Origin: a virus | IMG/VR virus record: IMGVR_UViG_3300032893_000011 | Span: 32,001 to 96,000 of that record | Length of the DNA: 64,000 nucleotides | Reading direction: 5' to 3' (one strand) | Shown: one piece after another, positions 1,057 to 32,900 of the stretch | Numbering within the stretch: position 1 is the first letter of the stretch | How the letters are laid out: every line of letters starts with the position of its first letter | Notes under the pieces: model-generated | What the model saw: the letters and a program-made list of their open reading frames with translations, nothing else | Told to the model about the DNA's origin: nothing | Databases searched by the model: none | Translations under genes and position numbers: made by a program

Positions 1057-3807
1057 GTGACGGTCCCCGCCCTGCGTGTCGTGCGCCGTCCCAAACGCGC
1101 CCACCGCCACCTGTCCCTGGTGGCCGCCAGCCAACCCATCGAAACCCCGCAACGCATATTCAGGACCACCGTCTCCGGGGTCGTCGCCGACGACGACTGG
1201 CAAACCGAGGCCTGGGACATGTACGACGCCGTCGGCGAGCTCCGCTACTACGTCGGCTGGCGCTCCTCATCGTGCTCACGGGTGCGCCTCATCGCCTCCG
1301 AGATCGACCCCGACACCGGCCGCCCCACCGGCACCTGCGACAACCTCGCCGCCGCCCAAGTCGTCAACGGCATCGCCGGTGGGCACCTCGGCCAAACCCA
1401 GCTCATCAAACGCGTCGTCGAATGCCTCACCGTGCCCGGAGAAGTGTGGGTGGGCATCATCCAACCCGGCGACGAGCCCGCGCAACGCTGGCTCGCCCTG
1501 TCGAAGGACGAGATCTTCAGAAACGGCGCCGGGGCGGAGATCGAGCTGCCCGACGGGTCGCGCCACACCCTGTCCATGCCCCGCGACTCGCTGATCCGCG
1601 TCTGGATCCCCCGAGCCCGGCGGGCGTCGCAGCCCGACTCGCCGGTCCGGGCCTGCCTCGGGTCGCTGCACGAGATACACCGCACCACGAAAACCATAGC
1701 CAACGCCTCCAAGTCCCGCCTCATCGGCAACGGCATCGTGTTCGTGCCGCAGGAGATGTCCCTGCCGCCGATGAACACCCCCCTGGCCGCCAACCAGCTC
1801 GGGCCGCCCACCCCGACGATGGACGGCACGTCGGCGGTGCAGCAGCTGCAGGAGCTGCTGTGGCAGGTGGCGCAGACGGCCTACGACGACGAAGACTCGA
1901 TGGCTGCCCTGATACCGATGTTCGCCACCGTGCCCGGCGACCAGATCAAAAACGTGCAGCACCTGCAGTTCGAGAACAACATCACCGACGTCGCGATCAA
2001 GACCCGCAACGACGCAATCGCCAGGCTCGCGATGGGATTGGACGTGAGCCCAGAAAGGCTCCTCGGTTTGGGGCGAAGCTCAAACCATTGGTGCAAAGAC
2101 GACCAGACTGAAATTCTGACACAACGCGGCTGGTTACGGCAGGATCAGCTGCGAATCGGCGACATGGCGCTGACGCTACAGCAAAGCGGGTTGAGCGAGT
2201 GGCAGCCAGTGCTGGACATCTACCGTGCTGACGTGATTGATGAGCCGATGCTGTCAATGGAGGCGGCGTCTCATTCATCGTTGTCCACGGCAGGGCATCG
2301 CTGGCTGGTGACTCACGTTAGCAACGGGAAATGGCGATGGACGACCAGCGGTCAGGGTTTCGCCAAGGCGGACCGCATACCCGCCGCTGCAAGATGTGTG
2401 TCGTTACCTTCTGGGCCGAAGTACTCGGATAGTTTCGTTCGGCTCGCAGCTGCTTACATGTCGGACGGCTCGCGGTTGCGCTATGAGTCTGGAACAGAAT
2501 TCGTTCGTATCGTCAAGTTCGATGCCGATGAAATCATTGCTTTGCGAGCGGTGTGCCGTGAAGTGTTCGGGCGTGACGTCTCAGAGCGCCATCACCCGAC
2601 CAGAACACGCGCCGGGCTGGCTTTCGTGCTGCACGCCGATGAGTCACAAGCGCTGTTTGACATCACCAGCGAGCATAAGGCGCTCAAACCCGAGTTCATT
2701 CTCACGTTAACGGAAGCGCAGCTGCACCTGTTCCTTGATGCGTTGATTGAGCTTGGCGACGGTGTCGCTTTATCGCATGGTGCTCGGACCTTCTTCCAGG
2801 TGGAGCCGTCACGACTGGACGCCATCGAGATGGCAGCGATCCTCGCTGGCTATCGCTGCACCCGCGGGCAACGTAATCAGCAGACCGGTTTCGGCACGAC
2901 TCCGCTCCACTGGCTACGAGCTGGAACGGCTCGTAAATGGTTTGCTCCCTATGTGGCCGAAAAGTCCTGGCAACGTTACTCCGGGGTCGTCTGGTGTCCA
3001 ACCACCGAGAACGGGACGTGGTTCGCGCGGCGAGATGGAAAGGTCTGCGTCAGCGGAAATTCGGCCTGGCAGTTAGCTGACGAGGACGTGCAGCTGCACA
3101 TTTGCCCCGTGATGGAGTTGCTGTGCGCGGCGTTCAACGAGCGCATCGTCGGCCCTGTGTTTCAGAGGATGGGCATCGACCCCACCCGCTACATGCTGTG
3201 GTACGACGCCACCGGGCTGACCGCAGACCCCGACAAAACCAACAACGCCACAGCGGCGTTCGACCGGGGGGCGATCACCGCCGACGCGTTGCGCTCCTAC
3301 CTGCAGCTCGGCGACGACACCGGCTACGACCTGTCCACCCTCGAAGGGTGGAAGGTGTGGGCGCGCGACCACGTCAGCAAGGACCCCACCCTGCTGTCGG
3401 TCCCGCAGCTCGTCGCGCTGCTGGGCCCCGACGTGGTGAAGGTGACCACACCGCCCGCCCCGCCACCCGAGCAGCCCGCAGTGCCCGCCGGGCAGCGCCC
3501 GCCCGCGCTGCCGTCCGCGAAACCCAAACCCGCAGCCCCCGCGCAGCAGGAGCCGCAAACCGAGGAGGAGGAGGCGGCCCCGGCCGCACAGGTCCGCGAC
3601 GACGTGCACATGGGCATCGTGGACCTGATGGTGTCACGGGCACTCGGCCTCGCGTCGCGGCGGCGTCGCGGCACCGGCGACCGGTGGGACGAAGCCCTCG
3701 AAGACGAAGTGCTGGGTCTGCTGAACATCGACGGCGAGGACGTGCGCGCGGCGGTTCGCCGCAGCGTGCGCCACAAACTCGCCGCGCGCAACGGGGAAGG
3801 AAGCTGA
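1057..3807 (+). CDS. Portal protein containing an intein
   Basis: First head gene; WQTEAWDMYDAVGELRY, SKSRLIGNG, RLAMGLDVSPERLLG..NHW|SAW motifs like Cluster B-type portals. Confidence 0.85.
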   Translation: MTVPALRVVRRPKRAHRHLSLVAASQPIETPQRIFRTTVSGVVADDDWQTEAWDMYDAVGELRYYVGWRSSSCSRVRLIASEIDPDTGRPTGTCDNLAAAQVVNGIAGGHLGQTQLIKRVVECLTVPGEVWVGIIQPGDEPAQRWLALSKDEIFRNGAGAEIELPDGSRHTLSMPRDSLIRVWIPRARRASQPDSPVRACLGSLHEIHRTTKTIANASKSRLIGNGIVFVPQEMSLPPMNTPLAANQLGPPTPTMDGTSAVQQLQELLWQVAQTAYDDEDSMAALIPMFATVPGDQIKNVQHLQFENNITDVAIKTRNDAIARLAMGLDVSPERLLGLGRSSNHWCKDDQTEILTQRGWLRQDQLRIGDMALTLQQSGLSEWQPVLDIYRADVIDEPMLSMEAASHSSLSTAGHRWLVTHVSNGKWRWTTSGQGFAKADRIPAAARCVSLPSGPKYSDSFVRLAAAYMSDGSRLRYESGTEFVRIVKFDADEIIALRAVCREVFGRDVSERHHPTRTRAGLAFVLHADESQALFDITSEHKALKPEFILTLTEAQLHLFLDALIELGDGVALSHGARTFFQVEPSRLDAIEMAAILAGYRCTRGQRNQQTGFGTTPLHWLRAGTARKWFAPYVAEKSWQRYSGVVWCPTTENGTWFARRDGKVCVSGNSAWQLADEDVQLHICPVMELLCAAFNERIVGPVFQRMGIDPTRYMLWYDATGLTADPDKTNNATAAFDRGAITADALRSYLQLGDDTGYDLSTLEGWKVWARDHVSKDPTLLSVPQLVALLGPDVVKVTTPPAPPPEQPAVPAGQRPPALPSAKPKPAAPAQQEPQTEEEEAAPAAQVRDDVHMGIVDLMVSRALGLASRRRRGTGDRWDEALEDEVLGLLNIDGEDVRAAVRRSVRHKLAARNGEGS
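2092..3060 (+). mobile_element. Intein (323 aa) with LAGLIDADG homing endonuclease, in portal
   Basis: Starts CKDDQTEILTQRGW; block B STAGHRWLV; LAGLIDADG-like LAAAYMSDGS and FLDALIELGDG; block F/G VVWCPTTENGTWFARRDGKVCVSGN followed by +1 Ser; lower GC than flanks. Confidence 0.92.
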
Positions 3808-3810
3808 ACC

Positions 3811-6800
3811 ATGTGGCCCGACCACGCCGAGGCGATCGAGGAGACCGTTAACGCCGAGGAGGCGCTGGAGGACGCCTACACACAGGCCCTGCACGCATGG
3901 GCGCCCCACGTGCAGGCCGCTGTCCTACCCGAACTGGACGGGCAGATCGTCACCGGCGACGACGACCCGCTGACCGCCGCAGCCACCGAAATCCCGCCCA
4001 ACCCCGACGCTGTCGGCTCCACCCAAAACCAGTGGGACGCCAGCGCGGCCGAGCACGTGCTGCCGGTGGTGGAGAAACTATGGGACGACGCCGCACTGGC
4101 CGCCGGGATCGGAACCGGGACACTCACCGCCGCCCTAAGCGCAGCCGACCTGCTGGCCGCAGCGAAATCGGCGCGCGACGACTTCACAAGCCGCTACAGG
4201 GACACCGCAGCGCAAGTGCCCGCCGCGGTGCGAGCCGAACTGCAGGCCATCATCAAACGCGCGCCCATAGGCACCACCACCTCGGCGCTGCGCTCGACCA
4301 TCCGCAAAGCCATCACACCCGGATCAGCGCTGCTGCGCGACCTGTCGCGACGCGCGAGCTACCACGCCGCCGGGATCCTCAACCACGCCCTCACGGCCGT
4401 CGCCAAACACACCGCAGGCGCCGACCGGCTCGAATGGCTGTGTGTGCACCCCGACACGGTCGTGTCGGCTGTCGGCGTCACCCACCTGGCGCGTCGCCGC
4501 TACGAAGGCACCCTTGTATCGATTCGCACAGCTTCGGGGTCGGCCGTGGCCCTCACACCGCAGCACCGTGTACTGACCGGCCGCGGGTGGGTGGCCGCCC
4601 AGCTCCTTCACGAGGGTGACGAGCTGTTCAAGGTCGGGGCCGTTAACGCCCCGGTCGCACCACACGTACAGGACGGGATAACCGTTATCGGTGATGTGGT
4701 CGACGCGGCGATGGACGGTCGCCCGCCCCAGGTGCGGTCCGTGGCGCGAGGTGTGGATTTCGACGGCCACACCGCTGGCGAGTATGTCGACGTTGTAGCG
4801 GCCGACCGCGACCTGCCGATCAACATCGAACCCGCTGGCGGCGAGATGCTCGGCGACCTGCTGCTCGCTGACGCCGACAGTCTGGCTCATGCGGCGATGC
4901 TTGGTGCGCGCCATCGCAACCACACCCTCGGCCGGTTTGGCGCGGCCCCGGTTCTTGTCGGCAACCATGCCGTAGAAGGCGGCCTTGACATCGGCGGGAA
5001 TCTTCGACACCCGGACCTTGCCAGCGGCGGACTTATCCCGCAACTCGACACCGGCCGCCGCGACAACGGCGGCGATCAACTGACCGGAACAACCGTATCG
5101 CTGGCCGAGCGCGAGCCGGGATCCCCCGGCGAGATACGCGGCGACGATCTCGTCAGCGTTGGCGCGGATGTCGCCGCGCCGCCGGGCCTCGACACCGAGT
5201 TTCTGCGCGGCCCGCGCCTGCGCAACGGCCTCGGGTCGGGTGAAACGCATCCGGGTGCCCTCGGCGCGGGTCCTCAAAACTCCCGCGTCGCGCAGCCTGC
5301 GGCGAACCGTCCCGGGGCTGCCGCCCAGGTCCACGGAGATTTCGACGGGACTCCATCCGGCGGTATACCTGGCGACGACCTCATCGACGTCGAGCCGGAC
5401 CCGCTTGGTGCGTGTGTTCGCGACCGGGTGGTCAGAGTGGGGCGAATTTTCCATAGCGGGTACGTGTACGACCTTTCGACGCGTGGCCATTGGTACACGG
5501 CGAATGGACTTATTGCACATAATTCTATACTCGACGAACGCACCCGCGACACCCATTGGGAGGCAGACGGGCAGGTCACATCGATCGGCGGGATGTTCGT
5601 CGTCGGCGGCTCTGAAATGGAATTTCCAGGGGACCATAGGGCCCCAATACGCGAATGGATCAACTGCGTGACCGGCGAGGCGCTAGTCTCCTGGCCTGGG
5701 CAGCAGGTATCTCACGCTACGAAGCGGCGCCACCGCGGCGCGTTCGTCCATCTGCTCACGGCTGACGGTCACGACCTCACCATCACCGCGAATCATCCCG
5801 TACTGACCGACGCCGGATACGTCACCGCTCACCTGTTGCGCCCAGGCGATCACGTCATCGCATCCGACCCCCTCAATGCCCCACAGGTAGATCACATGCC
5901 AGCCCGTGCTGATGAGGTCTATCGTGCGTTTCGCGATGCGGGGGTAGAGCAGCGGGTTGTAGCGAGCGGCGTGGACTTCCACCACGACGCGCTCGAAGGC
6001 GACGAAGTCAGCGTTGTACGGGCCGATGGTGACTTGTCCGAGGAGTTCAACCCCGGCCTTCTCGGCGGCGGCGACGATGCAGCGCTCGTTGGGCTGGGCA
6101 GCGGAAAGGGTGACGCCGCGCGTGCGGGCTCTGCTGTAAACGGCCGTCTCGACCTGGCCGTAGTAGCCCCTGGACGGCCTGGCGGCCGTCGACCGGCGAG
6201 CCTCGTTGGCGGCCCGGGCGATAGCGCGCCTACCCTCACGGTCGAGTTTGGCGAACCTGATCCGGTTGGCTTCGCTGCCAGAACGCACAGGAAGTCCCTG
6301 GTCGCGCAGGAGACGGACGATGGTGTCTCTGCTTACTCCGATGGTGCGCGCCATCTGCAGCACGCTTATGCCCTCGGCATGAAGCCGAGCAAGCTCACCG
6401 CTGTCGACGTTTACTTTGGCGACCATGATGTCTTCAACTTCTCGACCACCCAACAATTCTACTTCGGCAATGGCATTGCCGTGCACAACTGCCGATGCAG
6501 GCTGATCGCCCTGGGTGCAGGTGAGGAGCCTAAACTGCGGCGCGTGCCCGCCGAGGAGGCGGCCAAACGCGCCAAGCGCGGCGTGGTGCACGCCGAAGCG
6601 GAATCGGTGACCGCAGCGACGGAAGAGGTGGAGCAGATGGGCACCGTCACCCAGATCGATCCCCAGCAGCAGCCCGGCGAGACGTACCGCACGTTCACGG
6701 CGACGACCGCGTTCCTCGGCGTCCCCACCACCGACCGCCGCATGCTGCACAAGAAGATGGACCTGAAGATCCGGGCAGCCCCGCGACCGCTGATGTGGAT

Positions 6801-7962
6801 GTCCAAGACCGGTGATGGCATGGGGGGGCACCAGCACGCGTCCACGGTGGGCGTCATCGAGTCGGAGCAGGTCAAGGGCAACAAGATCGTCGAGTCGGGG
6901 TACCTGCTGAACACCCCGGACGCCGACGAGGCGGCGATGCAGCTCGCGCACAAGGTCACCCGGCCGTCGGTCGATTTGGGCGGCGCGGACTGGCAGATGA
7001 CCGACGAGGACGGCAACAAGATCGGCGAGGAGGAGTGGCGCAACCTGTCGCCGGGCACCAAGACGTACCGCACGTTCACCGCCGGTGAGTTGATGGGCAC
7101 AACCTTGGTGTCCACGCCCGCGTTCGGGGCGACGTCGCTGACGCTGCACCCGGAGCGCGAGACGCGGGACGTGGCGCTGGTCGCGGCGGCGGTGCAAAGC
7201 GCCCTGTTCTACGAGCCCCGCATATACCCGGCGTCGCACTTCTCCGACCCGCAGCTGCCCGGGCCGGCCCAACCGACGATGCTCGACGACGGCCGCATAG
7301 TGGGGCACATCGCCTGCTGGGGGGCGTGCCACCGCAGCGTGCAGAAACTCTGCCAGGAGGCGCCCCGATCCCCGTCCAATTACAGCCACTTCCACACCTC
7401 CCCGGCGGTGCGCCTCGACGACGGCACCCGGCTGCCGGTGGGACGGTTGACGATCGCCACCGGCCACGCCGACGGCCGCCTGAGCGGTGTGCCCGCGCAG
7501 GCCCACTACGACAACACCGGCTCCTGCTGGGCGCTGGTGCGGGCCGGGGAGGACGAGCACGGCATCTGGGTGTCCGGCATCGCCGCCCCGTGGGCCGACG
7601 CGGACCTGGTGGAGCAGGGCCTGTCCGCGCCGCTGTCGGGCGACTGGCGCGACTTCGGCGCCGGCCTGGACCTGATCGCCGCCCTGTCCGTGAACACCCC
7701 CGGGTTCGTCGCGGCCTCCGGGTTCGAGGACGAGTGGGGCCAGCAGCTGACCCTGGTGGCGTCCCTCGGACCGGACCCGACAGGGTCCCGCGGCCCGGCC
7801 GCGCTGACCCGCGACGACATCAAACGCGCGTTCGCCGAGGTCCTGTTCGAGGAGAATGCGCGAATCGAGCGGGAGTCGGCCCTGACGCGGGCCGCAGCGT
7901 TCACCCACCCGCCCACCCACAACGAGCGGGTCCGCGACATGCTGACCAGGGCCGGGTTCTAG
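3811..7962 (+). CDS. MuF-like (minor head) / capsid maturation protease fusion containing two inteins
   Basis: Spliced product restores the MuF motifs W-L-S-I-L-D-E-R-T-R-D-T-H..DG and EWIN-CRC; C-terminal protease-like region (T-D-R-R, PSVDL, TLVSTPAF, GHIACWG, LSGDWR). Confidence 0.85.
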   Translation: MWPDHAEAIEETVNAEEALEDAYTQALHAWAPHVQAAVLPELDGQIVTGDDDPLTAAATEIPPNPDAVGSTQNQWDASAAEHVLPVVEKLWDDAALAAGIGTGTLTAALSAADLLAAAKSARDDFTSRYRDTAAQVPAAVRAELQAIIKRAPIGTTTSALRSTIRKAITPGSALLRDLSRRASYHAAGILNHALTAVAKHTAGADRLEWLCVHPDTVVSAVGVTHLARRRYEGTLVSIRTASGSAVALTPQHRVLTGRGWVAAQLLHEGDELFKVGAVNAPVAPHVQDGITVIGDVVDAAMDGRPPQVRSVARGVDFDGHTAGEYVDVVAADRDLPINIEPAGGEMLGDLLLADADSLAHAAMLGARHRNHTLGRFGAAPVLVGNHAVEGGLDIGGNLRHPDLASGGLIPQLDTGRRDNGGDQLTGTTVSLAEREPGSPGEIRGDDLVSVGADVAAPPGLDTEFLRGPRLRNGLGSGETHPGALGAGPQNSRVAQPAANRPGAAAQVHGDFDGTPSGGIPGDDLIDVEPDPLGACVRDRVVRVGRIFHSGYVYDLSTRGHWYTANGLIAHNSILDERTRDTHWEADGQVTSIGGMFVVGGSEMEFPGDHRAPIREWINCVTGEALVSWPGQQVSHATKRRHRGAFVHLLTADGHDLTITANHPVLTDAGYVTAHLLRPGDHVIASDPLNAPQVDHMPARADEVYRAFRDAGVEQRVVASGVDFHHDALEGDEVSVVRADGDLSEEFNPGLLGGGDDAALVGLGSGKGDAARAGSAVNGRLDLAVVAPGRPGGRRPASLVGGPGDSAPTLTVEFGEPDPVGFAARTHRKSLVAQETDDGVSAYSDGARHLQHAYALGMKPSKLTAVDVYFGDHDVFNFSTTQQFYFGNGIAVHNCRCRLIALGAGEEPKLRRVPAEEAAKRAKRGVVHAEAESVTAATEEVEQMGTVTQIDPQQQPGETYRTFTATTAFLGVPTTDRRMLHKKMDLKIRAAPRPLMWMSKTGDGMGGHQHASTVGVIESEQVKGNKIVESGYLLNTPDADEAAMQLAHKVTRPSVDLGGADWQMTDEDGNKIGEEEWRNLSPGTKTYRTFTAGELMGTTLVSTPAFGATSLTLHPERETRDVALVAAAVQSALFYEPRIYPASHFSDPQLPGPAQPTMLDDGRIVGHIACWGACHRSVQKLCQEAPRSPSNYSHFHTSPAVRLDDGTRLPVGRLTIATGHADGRLSGVPAQAHYDNTGSCWALVRAGEDEHGIWVSGIAAPWADADLVEQGLSAPLSGDWRDFGAGLDLIAALSVNTPGFVAASGFEDEWGQQLTLVASLGPDPTGSRGPAALTRDDIKRAFAEVLFEENARIERESALTRAAAFTHPPTHNERVRDMLTRAGF
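4324..5454 (-). CDS. Antisense HTH + DUF559/Vsr-like endonuclease overlapping intein A (start could instead be 5490 or 5520)
   Basis: Two HTH repeats (DEVVARYTAGWSPVEISVDLGGSPGTVRRRLRDAGV; DEIVAAYLAGGSRLALGQRYGCS) then SEQQVAEHL..RQVAVGRYNVDI..VAVEIH..R..I..NGYPVLYVW. Confidence 0.85.
   Translation of the reverse strand: MENSPHSDHPVANTRTKRVRLDVDEVVARYTAGWSPVEISVDLGGSPGTVRRRLRDAGVLRTRAEGTRMRFTRPEAVAQARAAQKLGVEARRRGDIRANADEIVAAYLAGGSRLALGQRYGCSGQLIAAVVAAAGVELRDKSAAGKVRVSKIPADVKAAFYGMVADKNRGRAKPAEGVVAMARTKHRRMSQTVGVSEQQVAEHLAASGFDVDRQVAVGRYNVDILASGVAVEIHTSRHGPHLGRATVHRRVDHITDNGYPVLYVWCDRGVNGPDLEQLVTLVKELGGHPPAAGQYTVLRCEGHGRPRSCANRYKGAFVAATRQVGDADSRHDRVGVHTQPFEPVGACGVFGDGREGVVEDPGGVVARASRQVAQQR
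4441..5523 (+). mobile_element. Intein A (361 aa) in the MuF domain
   Basis: CVHPDTVV start; block B LTPQHRVLTGRGWVAAQLLHEGD; block F/G GYVYDLSTRGHWYTANGLIAHN; +1 Ser. Confidence 0.92.
5665..6489 (+). mobile_element. Intein B (275 aa) in the MuF N-C-R-C motif
   Basis: CVTGEALV start; block B ITANHPVLTDAGYVTAHLLRPGD; block F/G DVFNFSTTQQFYFGNGIAVHN; +1 Cys. Confidence 0.92.
5683..6426 (-). CDS. Antisense HTH + DUF559/Vsr-like endonuclease (247 aa) wholly inside intein B
   Basis: MVAKVNVDSGELARLHAEGISVLQMARTIGVSRDTIVRLLRDQG (HTH) then NERCI..GQVTIGPYNADF..VVVEVH..KRTIDLISTGWHVIYLW; start and stop both fall within the intein. Confidence 0.85.
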   Translation of the reverse strand: MVAKVNVDSGELARLHAEGISVLQMARTIGVSRDTIVRLLRDQGLPVRSGSEANRIRFAKLDREGRRAIARAANEARRSTAARPSRGYYGQVETAVYSRARTRGVTLSAAQPNERCIVAAAEKAGVELLGQVTIGPYNADFVAFERVVVEVHAARYNPLLYPRIAKRTIDLISTGWHVIYLWGIEGVGCDDVIAWAQQVSGDVSGVGQYGMIRGDGEVVTVSREQMDERAAVAPLRSVRYLLPRPGD

Positions 7963-29900: not shown

Positions 29901-32900
29901 CTGCCCGCCAGCCGGCTCCCGCCGGGGGCCATCCCCGGCCGCATAGGGCCGTGGGGCACGCCCATCCCGCCGCAGAACCCGCCCGGCTACCAGGTGGCCG
30001 CCGCCGTGATCCAAGCGCTGGGCGGCAACGTCGAAGCCGCTATCGGCGAATCCCCGATCCAGTACGCGCAGGAGCAGTGGGAGCAGGACGTCGACCGGTG
30101 GGTGGACAAGGCGGATCAGCAGATCAGCCAGTGGGAGCAGATGCTGCAGGAGATGCAGCAGTGGAACGCCTACCAGCAGGAGTATCTGGACTGGCTGCAG
30201 GGGCAGTCGCAGCAGAAGCCGATACCGGGGATGCCGTGGACCGCCCCCAACATTCCGCCGCCCGCGACGGGGCCGCGGCTGCCGCAGTTCGGACCGCCAC
30301 CGGGCTGGCCACCCGGATCAGCCCCGCCGCAGCAGCCGGGCTGGCCATCCGCGACACCCGGCTGGCCCTCGGCGCAAGGTTACGCGCAGATGGCGCCACC
30401 GGTCACCCTCCAGCCGGCTGCCGGCGCCCACGCCGTCATACCGCCCAACCCCACCAAGGACCAGGTGATCGCCGCGATCATCGCCGAAGGCCGGGCGCGC
30501 GGACTCAGCGACCAGGAGATCGCCGGTGTGCTGTCGGTGGCGCAGCAGGAAAGCGGCTTCAACCTTGAGGGGTTCATGGGGTTCGCGACGAAAACCACCG
30601 ACACCGGCTACACCGGCGGGGCCGCCTACGCCAACCAGTGGAACCCGGCCCTGCAGAAGTTCTACGACAACTACATGGCCGGTGGGTACGGGGCCGCCGG
30701 TGGCCCCCAAGCCAAGGCCGCGGCGCTGCAGGCCCTCCAAAGCGGCAACCCGCAGCCGTTCCTGAACTGGCTTCAGTCCGGTGTGCAGGGCATACCGAAC
30801 ACGGTGGGACTCAACGCCTCGTTCGGCCCCAATATCGCCGCCAACTATCCGCTGTGGCTGTCTAGGCTGTCCACGACATCCACCATCGGTGTCCCCCACC
30901 TGGGCACCGGACTGCCGCCCGGACCGACAGCACCCGGGCTGCCCGGAGCCAACATCGCCACCGCAGGTAGCCCCATCCCGGTGTGGGTCGTCGGCAGCGG
31001 CCCGATGACCGGCGCCGGGTTCGGCCCGATGCCTGGAGCCGGGTTCGGCCCGCCAGGAGGCCTCGGCGGCCTCCCAGCGCCGCCGCAAGGCTCCAGCTTC
31101 GCCGGTGCCGCAGCCAGCAGTGCCGGTGTCCAAGCCGCGATCCAGCTGGCACAGCAGGCGGCGGGCGGTCAATACCAGTGGGGCGGCGTGGGACCGCTCT
31201 ACGACTGCAGCGGCCTCATCTCCACGCTGTACGCGGCGATCACCGGCAAGCCCTTCGGCGGCGGGCAACGCTACTTCACCACCGACTCCAACTTCGCCTC
31301 GCTGGGGTTCGTGCCCGGCTACAACCCCGCGTCGGCGCTGAACATCTCCACCACCGGGGAGCACATCACCGGGCAACTCGCCGGGGTGCCGGTCGAGGCG
31401 CACGCGCCGGGCATTCCCACAAGTGTTGGCCCCGGCGCGACCTTCCCGCTGCCCGGCGGCACACCCTACTACCTGCCCATCGACGTCAACGGCCAACCGC
31501 TGGGACCCCCAACCGCGGCGCTGACATCCTGGAACGCCCCGGCCCCGCCGAGCACCGCGAACGCCTCACCGGCCTACTATCCAGGCCTGGGGCAGCCCGG
31601 CGGGCTGGGCTCGGTGGGCTCACCGGTGCCCGTGTACGTCACCAACTGGCCGTCCAGCGGGCCCGCAGCCCGCGGCGCCCCCCTGCCCGGCAGCACCGCA
31701 GCCCAGCAGATCGGCGAAGGGGTCGGGAATGTCGCCGCCAACGTCACCGGCAACATCCTCGACGCGATCGGTGGCCTGGGCAACCAGCCGTGGCAGCCAT
31801 GGAAGCAGCAGCCCGCCGCGTCGGTTTGGCAGCTCGCCAACCAGGGCAACCCGCTGGCCATCGCCGCAGCCGCGGGTTTCACCGTCCCGTCGTTCGCCAT
31901 GTCCGGCTCGGGTATCGGCCCCAACCAGATCGCCGCCCCGCCGAGCCCCGCGTTCAACGCGCAGGGGCAACTCTTCAGCGACACCGCCGCGCTGCTCGAA
32001 CGCTCCTTCTCCTCGCTGTCCGCCGAACTCGACGCGATGCGCAGCCAGCTCGTCGACGTGCTCAACGAGATCAAGCAGATGCTCACCCAGGAGGCCCTGG
32101 AGCCGATCATGGAGGCCGCCGTCAAGGCGGCGATCTCCTCCATCCCCGGGAGCGTGCTGGACACGATCGGCCAGAACATGGGCACAGCCGCCGCCCCGCC
32201 GATCGCCGACGCCGTCGACAGCGCCATCAGCACCGCCTCCCAAAGCGCCACCCCCAACACGAGCCTGGGAGGGGCGGTCACCACGTGGACCAACAGCGCC
32301 GAGAACGTGGTGCTGGGCCCGCAGTCCTACGACGAAGGCGGCCCATGGCCCACCGGCACGCTGGGCATCAACACCTCGGGGGCCACCGAATACGTGCTGA
32401 CCGCCGCCGAGTACGCCAACCTGGGCCGGTTCCAGGGCATGGACCCGGCGACGCTGCAGGGTGCCGGGTGGACATCGGCCGCCCCCGGGACGATCGGCAA
32501 CGCCAACGTCGGCGCGCAATGGTTCGGGGTGGAAAACATCCCGATCCTCAACGCGCTGGTCAACATCCTGGTGGAGATCCTGCTGTCCGTGCTGGGTGTG
32601 CAAATCCAGGTCAGAGACACCATGATCAATTTGACCCAGCAATTCCGCCAGTTCCGCGGCGACTCGTTCAAGGCGTTCGACGCGCAGGGAAGGTTGTTGA
32701 ACGACACGAGCGCGCTGATGGACCGCAGCATCACCTCCGCGCAGGAGGCCGCCGACCAGCGCATCCAAATCCTGGAGATCGTCCTGGCGGCGCTGATCAA
32801 GTACATCGTCGACAACATCATCATCCCCATCGCCGACGCGGTCGGCCAGGCGCTGGTCAACGCGGCCGCCTCCGCCGCCGGAGCGGCGACCAGCGCCGGC

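Follow-up and report, generated by a model that had tools for sequence, protein, structure and literature searches.

Two inteins of a phage MuF gene, each overlapped codon on codon by an antisense gene for a predicted homing endonuclease

The DNA analysed here, called the window, is a stretch of 64,000 nucleotides (positions 32,001 to 96,000) of the 113.7-kb IMG/VR virus record IMGVR_UViG_3300032893_000011, with a GC content of about 67-70%. In the window, a plus-strand gene for a MuF-like minor capsid protein fused to a capsid maturation protease (3811-7962) is interrupted by two inteins, and the DNA of each intein is also covered, on the minus strand, by an open reading frame (ORF). These antisense genes, HEG-1 opposite intein 1 and HEG-2 opposite intein 2, are predicted to encode helix-turn-helix (HTH) modules followed by a nuclease resembling Vsr and DUF559 proteins.

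Results

Two predicted inteins in the MuF gene

The MuF/protease gene is a single ORF for a precursor of 1383 amino acids (aa), and its product without the two inteins has 747 aa. The 3' part of the gene shows nucleotide similarity to Mycobacterium and Gordonia phage genes for a "capsid maturation protease and MuF-like fusion protein". Intein 1 (4441-5523, plus strand, 361 aa; ...EWL↓CVHPD...TPQH...AHN↓SILDERTRDTH, arrows marking the junctions) occupies a position that we call MuF site a. Intein 2 (5665-6489, plus strand, 275 aa; ...EWIN↓CVTGE...TANH...VHN↓CRC) occupies site b. The two inteins break the two best-conserved motifs of MuF, which are carried by the 47-codon extein segment between them (5524-5664, plus strand; SILDERTRDTHW...REWIN).

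The earlier note on this DNA had described both inteins as having intact splicing blocks, and each element was indeed present. The class 1 nucleophile at intein position 1 is a Cys (aa 211 for intein 1, aa 619 for intein 2), block B has its TxxH (TPQH and TANH, respectively), with T41 and H44 invariant in the 24 sequences of alignment A3, and the C-terminal His-Asn is followed by a suitable +1 residue (AHN↓S and VHN↓C). Intein 1 scored 54.5 bits against Pfam PF14890 (Intein_splicing, cut-off 35.8) and matched the Mtu RecA intein in a phmmer search. For intein 2, the two ends form a HINT domain in the AlphaFold2 (AF2) model, which aligned with the Mtu RecA mini-intein at Z 13.0 (root-mean-square deviation, rmsd, 1.8; 108 aligned residues), and a profile built from its relatives matched solely intein splicing domains in the PDB, at both ends, with E about 1e-10. 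By sequence hallmarks and fold, the MuF gene therefore holds two class-1 inteins, for which splicing is predicted.

The centres of the two inteins are of a different kind when read in the sense frame. They are rich in Gly, Ala, Asp and Pro (0.46-0.47, versus 0.35 in the extein), and neither has a Pfam domain at E <0.1, which is the sole basis for the statement in the case of the intein 1 centre. For intein 2, the PDB profile search gave no match in the centre, and residues 122-220 were modelled by AF2 with a pLDDT (predicted local distance difference test score) below 50, that is, as disorder. The earlier claim of a G/D/A/P-rich sense filler lacking an endonuclease domain stands.

Antisense genes in codon register

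The minus-strand ORFs 4324-5637 and 5683-7920 share exact triplets with the plus frame, so that codon lies on codon. HEG-1 (4324-5490, minus strand) was delineated from the ORF and an hhalign comparison with the family profile (probability 99.9%, E 2e-34), and its two HTH modules precede a Vsr/DUF559-like nuclease that is assigned by the profile alone. The nuclease core lies at 4546-4842 on the minus strand (SEQQV...QVAVGRYNVDIL...VAVEIH...RRVDHITDNGY...GQYTVLRC, aligned to the family). Its frame is open from 5637, with ATG 5490 or ATG 5454 as candidate starts, and its stop (4324-4326) is 39 codons past the N-end of intein 1, in the extein. HEG-2 (5683-6426, minus strand), supported by the ORF, an AF2 model and homologues, encodes 247 aa plus a stop and lies wholly within intein 2. 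Its most likely start, ATG 6426, is 21 codons from the C-end of the intein and its stop, 5683-5685, is 6 codons inside the N-end; both are the start and stop kept by its clade. HEG-2 homologues are 45-72% identical to it (51-52% in Gordonia phages). HEG-1 and HEG-2 are 24% identical to each other, and are therefore not a recent duplication.

The AF2 model of HEG-2, made from a 39-sequence alignment, was confident over its full length (pLDDT 90.5, predicted template modelling score 0.71). Fold assignment was based on VIA-align Z-scores and sequence profiles. Residues 1-48 (6283-6426, minus strand) form an N-terminal HTH of the resolvase/transposase type (Z 5.6-6.2), and residues 108-222 (5761-6105, minus strand) form a Vsr-like nuclease domain, identified by structural matches and invariant residues. 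The best match of this domain was the catalytic domain of I-Bth0305I (3r3p; Z 8.7, rmsd 2.6, 89 aligned residues), followed by Vsr (1cw0, Z 7.9, rmsd 3.2, 110 aligned; 1vsr, Z 7.8) and by the DUF559 protein 3hrl (Z 7.0). Profiles of the antisense family matched 3hrl (E 3.7e-7), 3r3p (E 1.1e-4) and, for the HTH, 2lvs (E 1.7e-7). Foldseek E-values for the model were weak, the best being 1.5e-2. The structure check that the earlier note had proposed, expecting a Vsr-like nuclease and an HTH, thus came out as predicted for HEG-2.

Single-sequence Pfam matches of HEG-1 and HEG-2 to HTH families, DUF559 and MTES_1575 were all sub-threshold, including HTH_38 and HTH_7 for the HTH of HEG-2; the DUF559 cut-off (PF04480, 20.6 bits) was missed by both HEG-1 (18.8) and HEG-2 (15.4). 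Since the family profile nevertheless matches 3hrl, the HEG family is best seen as a DUF559 relative outside the curated family.

Eight family-invariant or near-invariant residues, E114, Q131, Y137, N138, D140, E150, R167 and G175, are found in both HEG-1 and HEG-2. E114 and D140, which correspond to E170 and the first Asp, D196, of I-Bth0305I, are invariant in 39/39 sequences, and R167 is Arg in 37 and Lys in 2 of them. No conserved Asp equivalent to the second Asp of I-Bth0305I, D222, was found in the 39-sequence family, and the general-base His is likewise unconserved. Strict membership in the EDxHD family was therefore rejected, and the proteins are named Vsr/DUF559-like. We conclude that they are predicted HTH plus Vsr/DUF559-like proteins, as the earlier note had read them in codon register with the MuF frame; their nuclease activity is a prediction from fold and profile.

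Relatives are nested antisense to head genes

The two antisense proteins were compared with 50,697 phage records by tblastn, and gave matches in 109 and 54 records. Among the matches listed, all lay under a gene for head morphogenesis, MuF or minor capsid protein or, at this position, under a gene labelled only "hypothetical protein". Seven records of cultured phages were inspected (Aaphi23, Salmonella PK1, Gordonia Kewpiedoll, Gordonia Malisha, Mycobacterium Sejanus, Klebsiella RCIP0015 and Pseudomonas BR313c). The match was antisense to the head gene in 7/7, and none of the seven gives the antisense gene a functional name; the Salmonella PK1 record alone has annotated ORFs in this place, labelled hypothetical.

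Another 50 loci came from an alignment-driven scan of IMG/VR, and a scan of genome contigs with alignment A1 gave 5; with HEG-2 as a single-protein query, nothing was found among viral contigs. In 53/53 related loci, with GC contents from 0.38 to 0.71, the endonuclease match lay fully within a longer ORF of the opposite strand, codon on codon. These opposite-strand ORFs are MuF-type proteins, and the junctions of their inteins mostly read N↓C...[HS]N↓C[RH]C.

In an index of 5.8 billion proteins, the called proteins matching HEG-2 numbered 4. The family profile retrieved 23,584 representatives at E <=1e-3 and 1,653 clusters at E <=1e-30 (50% identity clusters). No free-standing relatives were seen among the 53 loci, and nearly all top representatives were nested, in searches whose patterns and profile favour nested copies; because these include the intein-mirrored tail, the absence of free-standing relatives is not established. 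In P0070 (836 aa), a protein of the representative search, the HTH module of the family profile matched 16 times and the nuclease tail was missing; the protein resembles this HTH repeat strung into a long array.

The antisense frame is under selection in the intein centre

In the high-GC window, the openness of both frames is uninformative, so the verdict on whether the antisense genes are more than chance rests on homology, fold and comparative data. Double openness within the window was rejected as evidence, being expected by chance. In low-GC relatives (the same antisense protein was found in genomes of 38-51% GC), the absence of TTA, CTA and TCA has a probability of 1e-7 to 1e-16 in either frame.

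Selection was examined in nucleotide alignments of five independent pairs of related loci. In the intein centre, the differences at sense codon positions 1, 2 and 3 were 426, 174 and 251 of 907 sites each. The most variable position was therefore sense position 1, so that the fastest position is the third position of the antisense frame. In the exteins and at both splicing ends, sense position 3 was the fastest. The flip was significant within the centre (chi-square p = 3e-17) and as an interaction (p = 1e-14), and in each of the pairs the antisense frame had the higher amino-acid identity. The site-a lineage, window intein 1 versus locus L019 included, showed the flip too (0.51 vs 0.40 in the centre, 0.36 vs 0.54 at the N-end), and the excess of GC at third codon positions (GC3) shifted to the antisense frame in the centres of both window inteins. 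These data support the view that, in the intein centre, purifying selection acts on the antisense frame. Together with the nesting in all 53 loci, they bear out what the earlier note had expected from homologues and per-frame selection.

One stretch is constrained on both strands (5686-5829, both). Here, HEG-2 residues 200-247 (GQYGMIRGDG...) lie opposite intein-2 residues 1-55, which comprise blocks A and B (TANHPVLT), so that the C-terminal ~45 residues of the nuclease are antisense to the two blocks. In relatives, the second codon position is nearly frozen opposite blocks A and B (0.069 differences per site), and the nuclease motif QYRVIRG mirrors the intein motif TPNHPVL. With a loose pattern, 125 of 152 proteins, mostly top representatives, had the mirrored block-B motif, about 36 residues before their C-terminus, and most of the others have visible variants of it; in control windows it was found in 3/285.

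The portal gene of the same phage (1057-3807, plus strand) carries a third intein of 323 aa (2092-3060, plus strand; ...NHW↓CKDDQ...VCVSGN↓SAW). It has the in-frame LAGLIDADG-like motifs LAAAYMSDGS and LDALIELGDG, and its GC content is 0.585, versus about 0.68 around it. The portal precursor (916 aa) had no Pfam match at E <0.1. As an internal control from the same phage, the antisense frame of this intein contains 11 stops. The portal intein is of the canonical kind, with HINT split by the mobility module at the same topological position as in the MuF inteins. It differs from them in that its endonuclease is part of the intein polypeptide and its antisense frame is closed.

Starts, stops and promoter-like sites

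In nearly all loci, the endonuclease stop is 0-22 codons inside the N-end of the intein. The conserved start is 20-24 codons from the C-end, opposite the His of block F, and was accompanied by a Shine-Dalgarno-like sequence in 17/28 loci. In Haemophilus phage Aaphi23 (locus L001, 2442-2469, plus strand; AJ560763.1), a promoter-like sequence, CTTACA-16-TATAAT (10/12, with an extended TG), is found in the intein, 29 nt upstream of the antisense ATG and with GGAGG between them. In Aaphi23, promoter, ribosome-binding site, ORF and stop may thus all travel with the intein. Of three relatives scanned, Aaphi23 alone had a convincing promoter-like site in the right place. As this is one relative in three, and none was seen in the window, no conserved promoter is claimed.

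Two insertion sites and two lineages

Site a alone is occupied in four loci (L019, L020, L023 and L049) and in Sejanus gp8, and site b alone in most of the 53 loci. Both sites are occupied in the window and in locus L010. Two further loci, L011 and L012, have match statistics identical to those of L010, and are known from those statistics alone. Locus L006 shows an empty site a, with the uninterrupted allele TW[IL]-CTLDGRTR. The junction of intein 1 is common to L019, L020, L023, L049, L010 and phage Sejanus.

L010 (IMGVR_UViG_3300025130_000006) is an unrelated contig whose 1921-aa ORF is interrupted twice, by an intein at site a and another at site b (sense aa 635-900 and 947-1213), and both have an endonuclease gene on the opposite strand. 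By its sequence, P0004 was identified as L010's site-b gene.

The endonuclease tree placed the four genes of site a in a single clade (99/93), and HEG-2 grouped with Gordonia phage Kewpiedoll. Judged by their sequences, HEG-1 and HEG-2 belong to separate, site-specific lineages, in keeping with the earlier argument that two divergent copies at two sites point to a family and not to an accident. The independent presence and absence of inteins at sites a and b supports the view that they are independently mobile.

In locus L049 (1312-1950; IMGVR_UViG_3300012090_000104), the site-a intein has 213 aa and its antisense endonuclease gene is shortened and contains stops. L049 is likely a decay intermediate on the way to a mini-intein.

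Discussion

A composite two-strand homing element

In our reading, which we hold with good confidence, each insert is a composite homing element written on two strands. On the sense strand, class-1 HINT halves would be joined by a disordered linker of roughly 100 to 240 residues. The whole insert would be translated in the MuF frame and then removed by protein splicing, which would restore the essential head protein. On the antisense strand, the same triplets would encode a homing endonuclease of the free-standing type, with one or more HTH modules at its N-terminus and the Vsr/DUF559-like nuclease at its C-terminus. Once transcribed and translated, the endonuclease would cleave MuF alleles that lack the intein in co-infecting phages, HEG-1 being directed at W-L↓C/S-x-L-D-x-R-T-R (site a) and HEG-2 at N↓C-R-C (site b), and recombinational repair would then copy the intein together with its gene. 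The codon-on-codon register is the cheapest for double coding, because each stop of one strand is read on the other as TTA, CTA or TCA; if these two Leu codons and this Ser codon are avoided, both frames stay open. The central proposal of the earlier note, a separate antisense mobility gene whose sense shadow is filler, is upheld by the purifying selection on the antisense frame, the fold of HEG-2, the disordered sense centre of intein 2 and the 53 nested loci.

Several observations weigh against this reading as far as the window itself is concerned. The probability of finding no TTA, CTA or TCA by chance in its inteins is about 0.2-0.33, and neighbouring genes too are overlain by open antisense runs, 267-398 codons long. 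A scan of the window showed no sigma-70-type promoter or terminator. The selection test is strong in relatives only, the nearest relatives of the window being 45-54% identical and near saturation. HEG-1 has lost its canonical start, with a Tyr codon where relatives have His/ATG, and its canonical stop, with CTG where L019 has the stop-mirroring Leu codon. It also carries an extra, second copy of the HTH. The loss of conserved start and stop, together with an ORF running 39 codons into the extein, could reflect incipient decay. Finally, the general-base position, equated with H213 by sequence spacing and not by residue-level structural superposition, holds an Asn in HEG-2, a Gly in HEG-1 and a His in only 22/39 members of the family.

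It could thus be that the family is real, and that one or both antisense genes are inactive here, the inteins being fixed passengers and the ORFs staying open through high GC. The chance openness, the altered ends and extra HTH of HEG-1 and the missing general base all fit such a state, as does the fact that no intein-less near relative was found that could show a recent invasion. We think this unlikely. Both genes are free of frameshifts and keep the eight residues that are invariant in the family, HEG-2 retains the start and stop of its clade, and by GC3 the antisense frame is the favoured one in the two centres. Real decay has another appearance, as L049 illustrates with its shortened, stop-containing gene and 213-aa intein.

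The antisense protein might also be made for a purpose other than homing, as a regulator or as a nuclease for exclusion or competition, or antisense transcription might tune the late genes. An HTH joined to a nuclease is a generic architecture, and the strict EDxHD motif is not kept, which leaves room for such roles. However, the gene is always nested in an intein and ends within the intein borders, the endonuclease lineages track the insertion site and site occupancy is independent. In addition, I-Bth0305I, the nearest relative that has been characterised, has its domains in the same order and is a genuine homing endonuclease, and a preprint discussed below (bioRxiv 10.1101/2025.01.02.630785) describes signs of horizontal transfer in the phylogenies of some clusters. 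A role outside homing therefore appears quite improbable.

That the antisense ORFs are chance shadow frames with noise for domain matches, and the sense centre a functional novel endonuclease or DNA-binding domain, would agree with the long antisense runs over other genes of the window and with the Pfam scores below curated cut-offs, but is refuted by the comparative data: the same protein recurs at 38-51% GC, where double openness is so improbable, profile and fold match Vsr-family nucleases, the substitution pattern selects the antisense frame, and the sense centre has a pLDDT below 50 and no profile match.

Comparison with known systems

The author of the earlier note knew of no description of this architecture, and on this point the note is not supported. 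Gosselin, Arsenault and Gogarten (bioRxiv 10.1101/2025.01.02.630785, Oct 2025) describe inteins with an "anti-sense VSR-like HEN" in minor capsid proteins of actinobacteriophages. The architecture is therefore already known, and the window is a further example of antisense-endonuclease inteins. According to the preprint, minor-capsid inteins carry only non-canonical endonucleases, the AlphaFold model of the antisense protein matches 1CW0 at Z 10.6, HHpred gives a match to 3R3P, and the sense "HEN region" is without recognisable structure. Its authors propose that a free-standing endonuclease gene invaded an intein. Their data come from PhagesDB only, and they call the architecture rare; Affeca, Keitabear and Sedona are in their data set and were matched here too.

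The likeness to the inteins of that preprint is close: a contiguous intein in a MuF or minor capsid gene, an antisense ORF across the endonuclease region, a Vsr-like antisense fold (by model for HEG-2, by profile for HEG-1) and an unstructured sense region (for intein 2). Unlike there, both MuF sites are occupied here, and the family comprises at least 1,653 clusters at E <=1e-30. In the passages of the preprint consulted, we found neither the invariant codon-on-codon register nor a codon-position test, and neither double occupancy of one MuF gene nor low-GC proteobacterial phages. The doubly occupied MuF gene, the distinct site-specific lineages, the invariant register and a very large family across host phyla may thus go beyond the preprint, judging from these passages.

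Antisense inteins are also known with LAGLIDADG endonucleases, in Synechocystis DnaX and in a Chloroflexus SpoVR-like protein (Gorbalenya 1998 and Gogarten 2002, cited by Gosselin, Arsenault and Gogarten). There, as here, the endonuclease is encoded opposite the intein/extein frame, and the nuclease family differs.

In "fractured genes", split inteins have a free-standing gene for a Vsr-like endonuclease between their halves (Dassa et al. 2009, PMC2677866). As in the window, the endonuclease is Vsr-like, is linked to an intein in phage genes and has a separate gene instead of being an in-frame domain. In those systems, however, host gene and intein are split into two ORFs and splicing occurs in trans, whereas here one unbroken frame of 1383 codons runs through both inteins, which are contiguous and predicted to splice in cis.

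I-Bth0305I, of the EDxHD homing endonuclease family, is encoded in a group I intron (Taylor et al. 2011, PMC3239194; PDB 3R3P). It is the best structural match of HEG-2 and shares with it N-terminal HTH/NUMOD DNA-binding repeats, a C-terminal Vsr-like catalytic domain, and the Glu and first Asp of EDxHD (E114 and D140). Unlike in I-Bth0305I, neither the motif's His nor its last Asp is conserved in the antisense family, and the invariant E150 and R167 resemble those of DUF559 (3hrl).

An ancient family or backward landings

Rare landings of an endonuclease gene backward in an intein would be one way to such loci. The alternative is a single ancient family of mobile elements in which the two strands are co-adapted, and we regard this picture, taken as a whole, as one that may equally well hold or fail. 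It would entail that the family is very abundant, in phages of actinobacteria, proteobacteria and other phyla, with a register that is always codon on codon. Block B (TxNHPxLT) would double as the last beta-strand of the nuclease (QYRVIRG), and block F (H-V-Y-N-L) as start codon and ribosome-binding site. Its lineages would be specialised on the two MuF motifs, so that one gene can hold both.

The window offers a clean, naturally occurring example of double coding over a long sense/antisense overlap, of the kind missed by gene callers, in which the avoidance of only three codons allows two genes on one stretch of DNA. What it adds to the known architecture is the doubly occupied MuF gene and quantitative tests. 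It links contiguous inteins to the split inteins of "fractured genes", and supports the view of intein evolution in which the splicing domain came first and the endonuclease gene invaded later.

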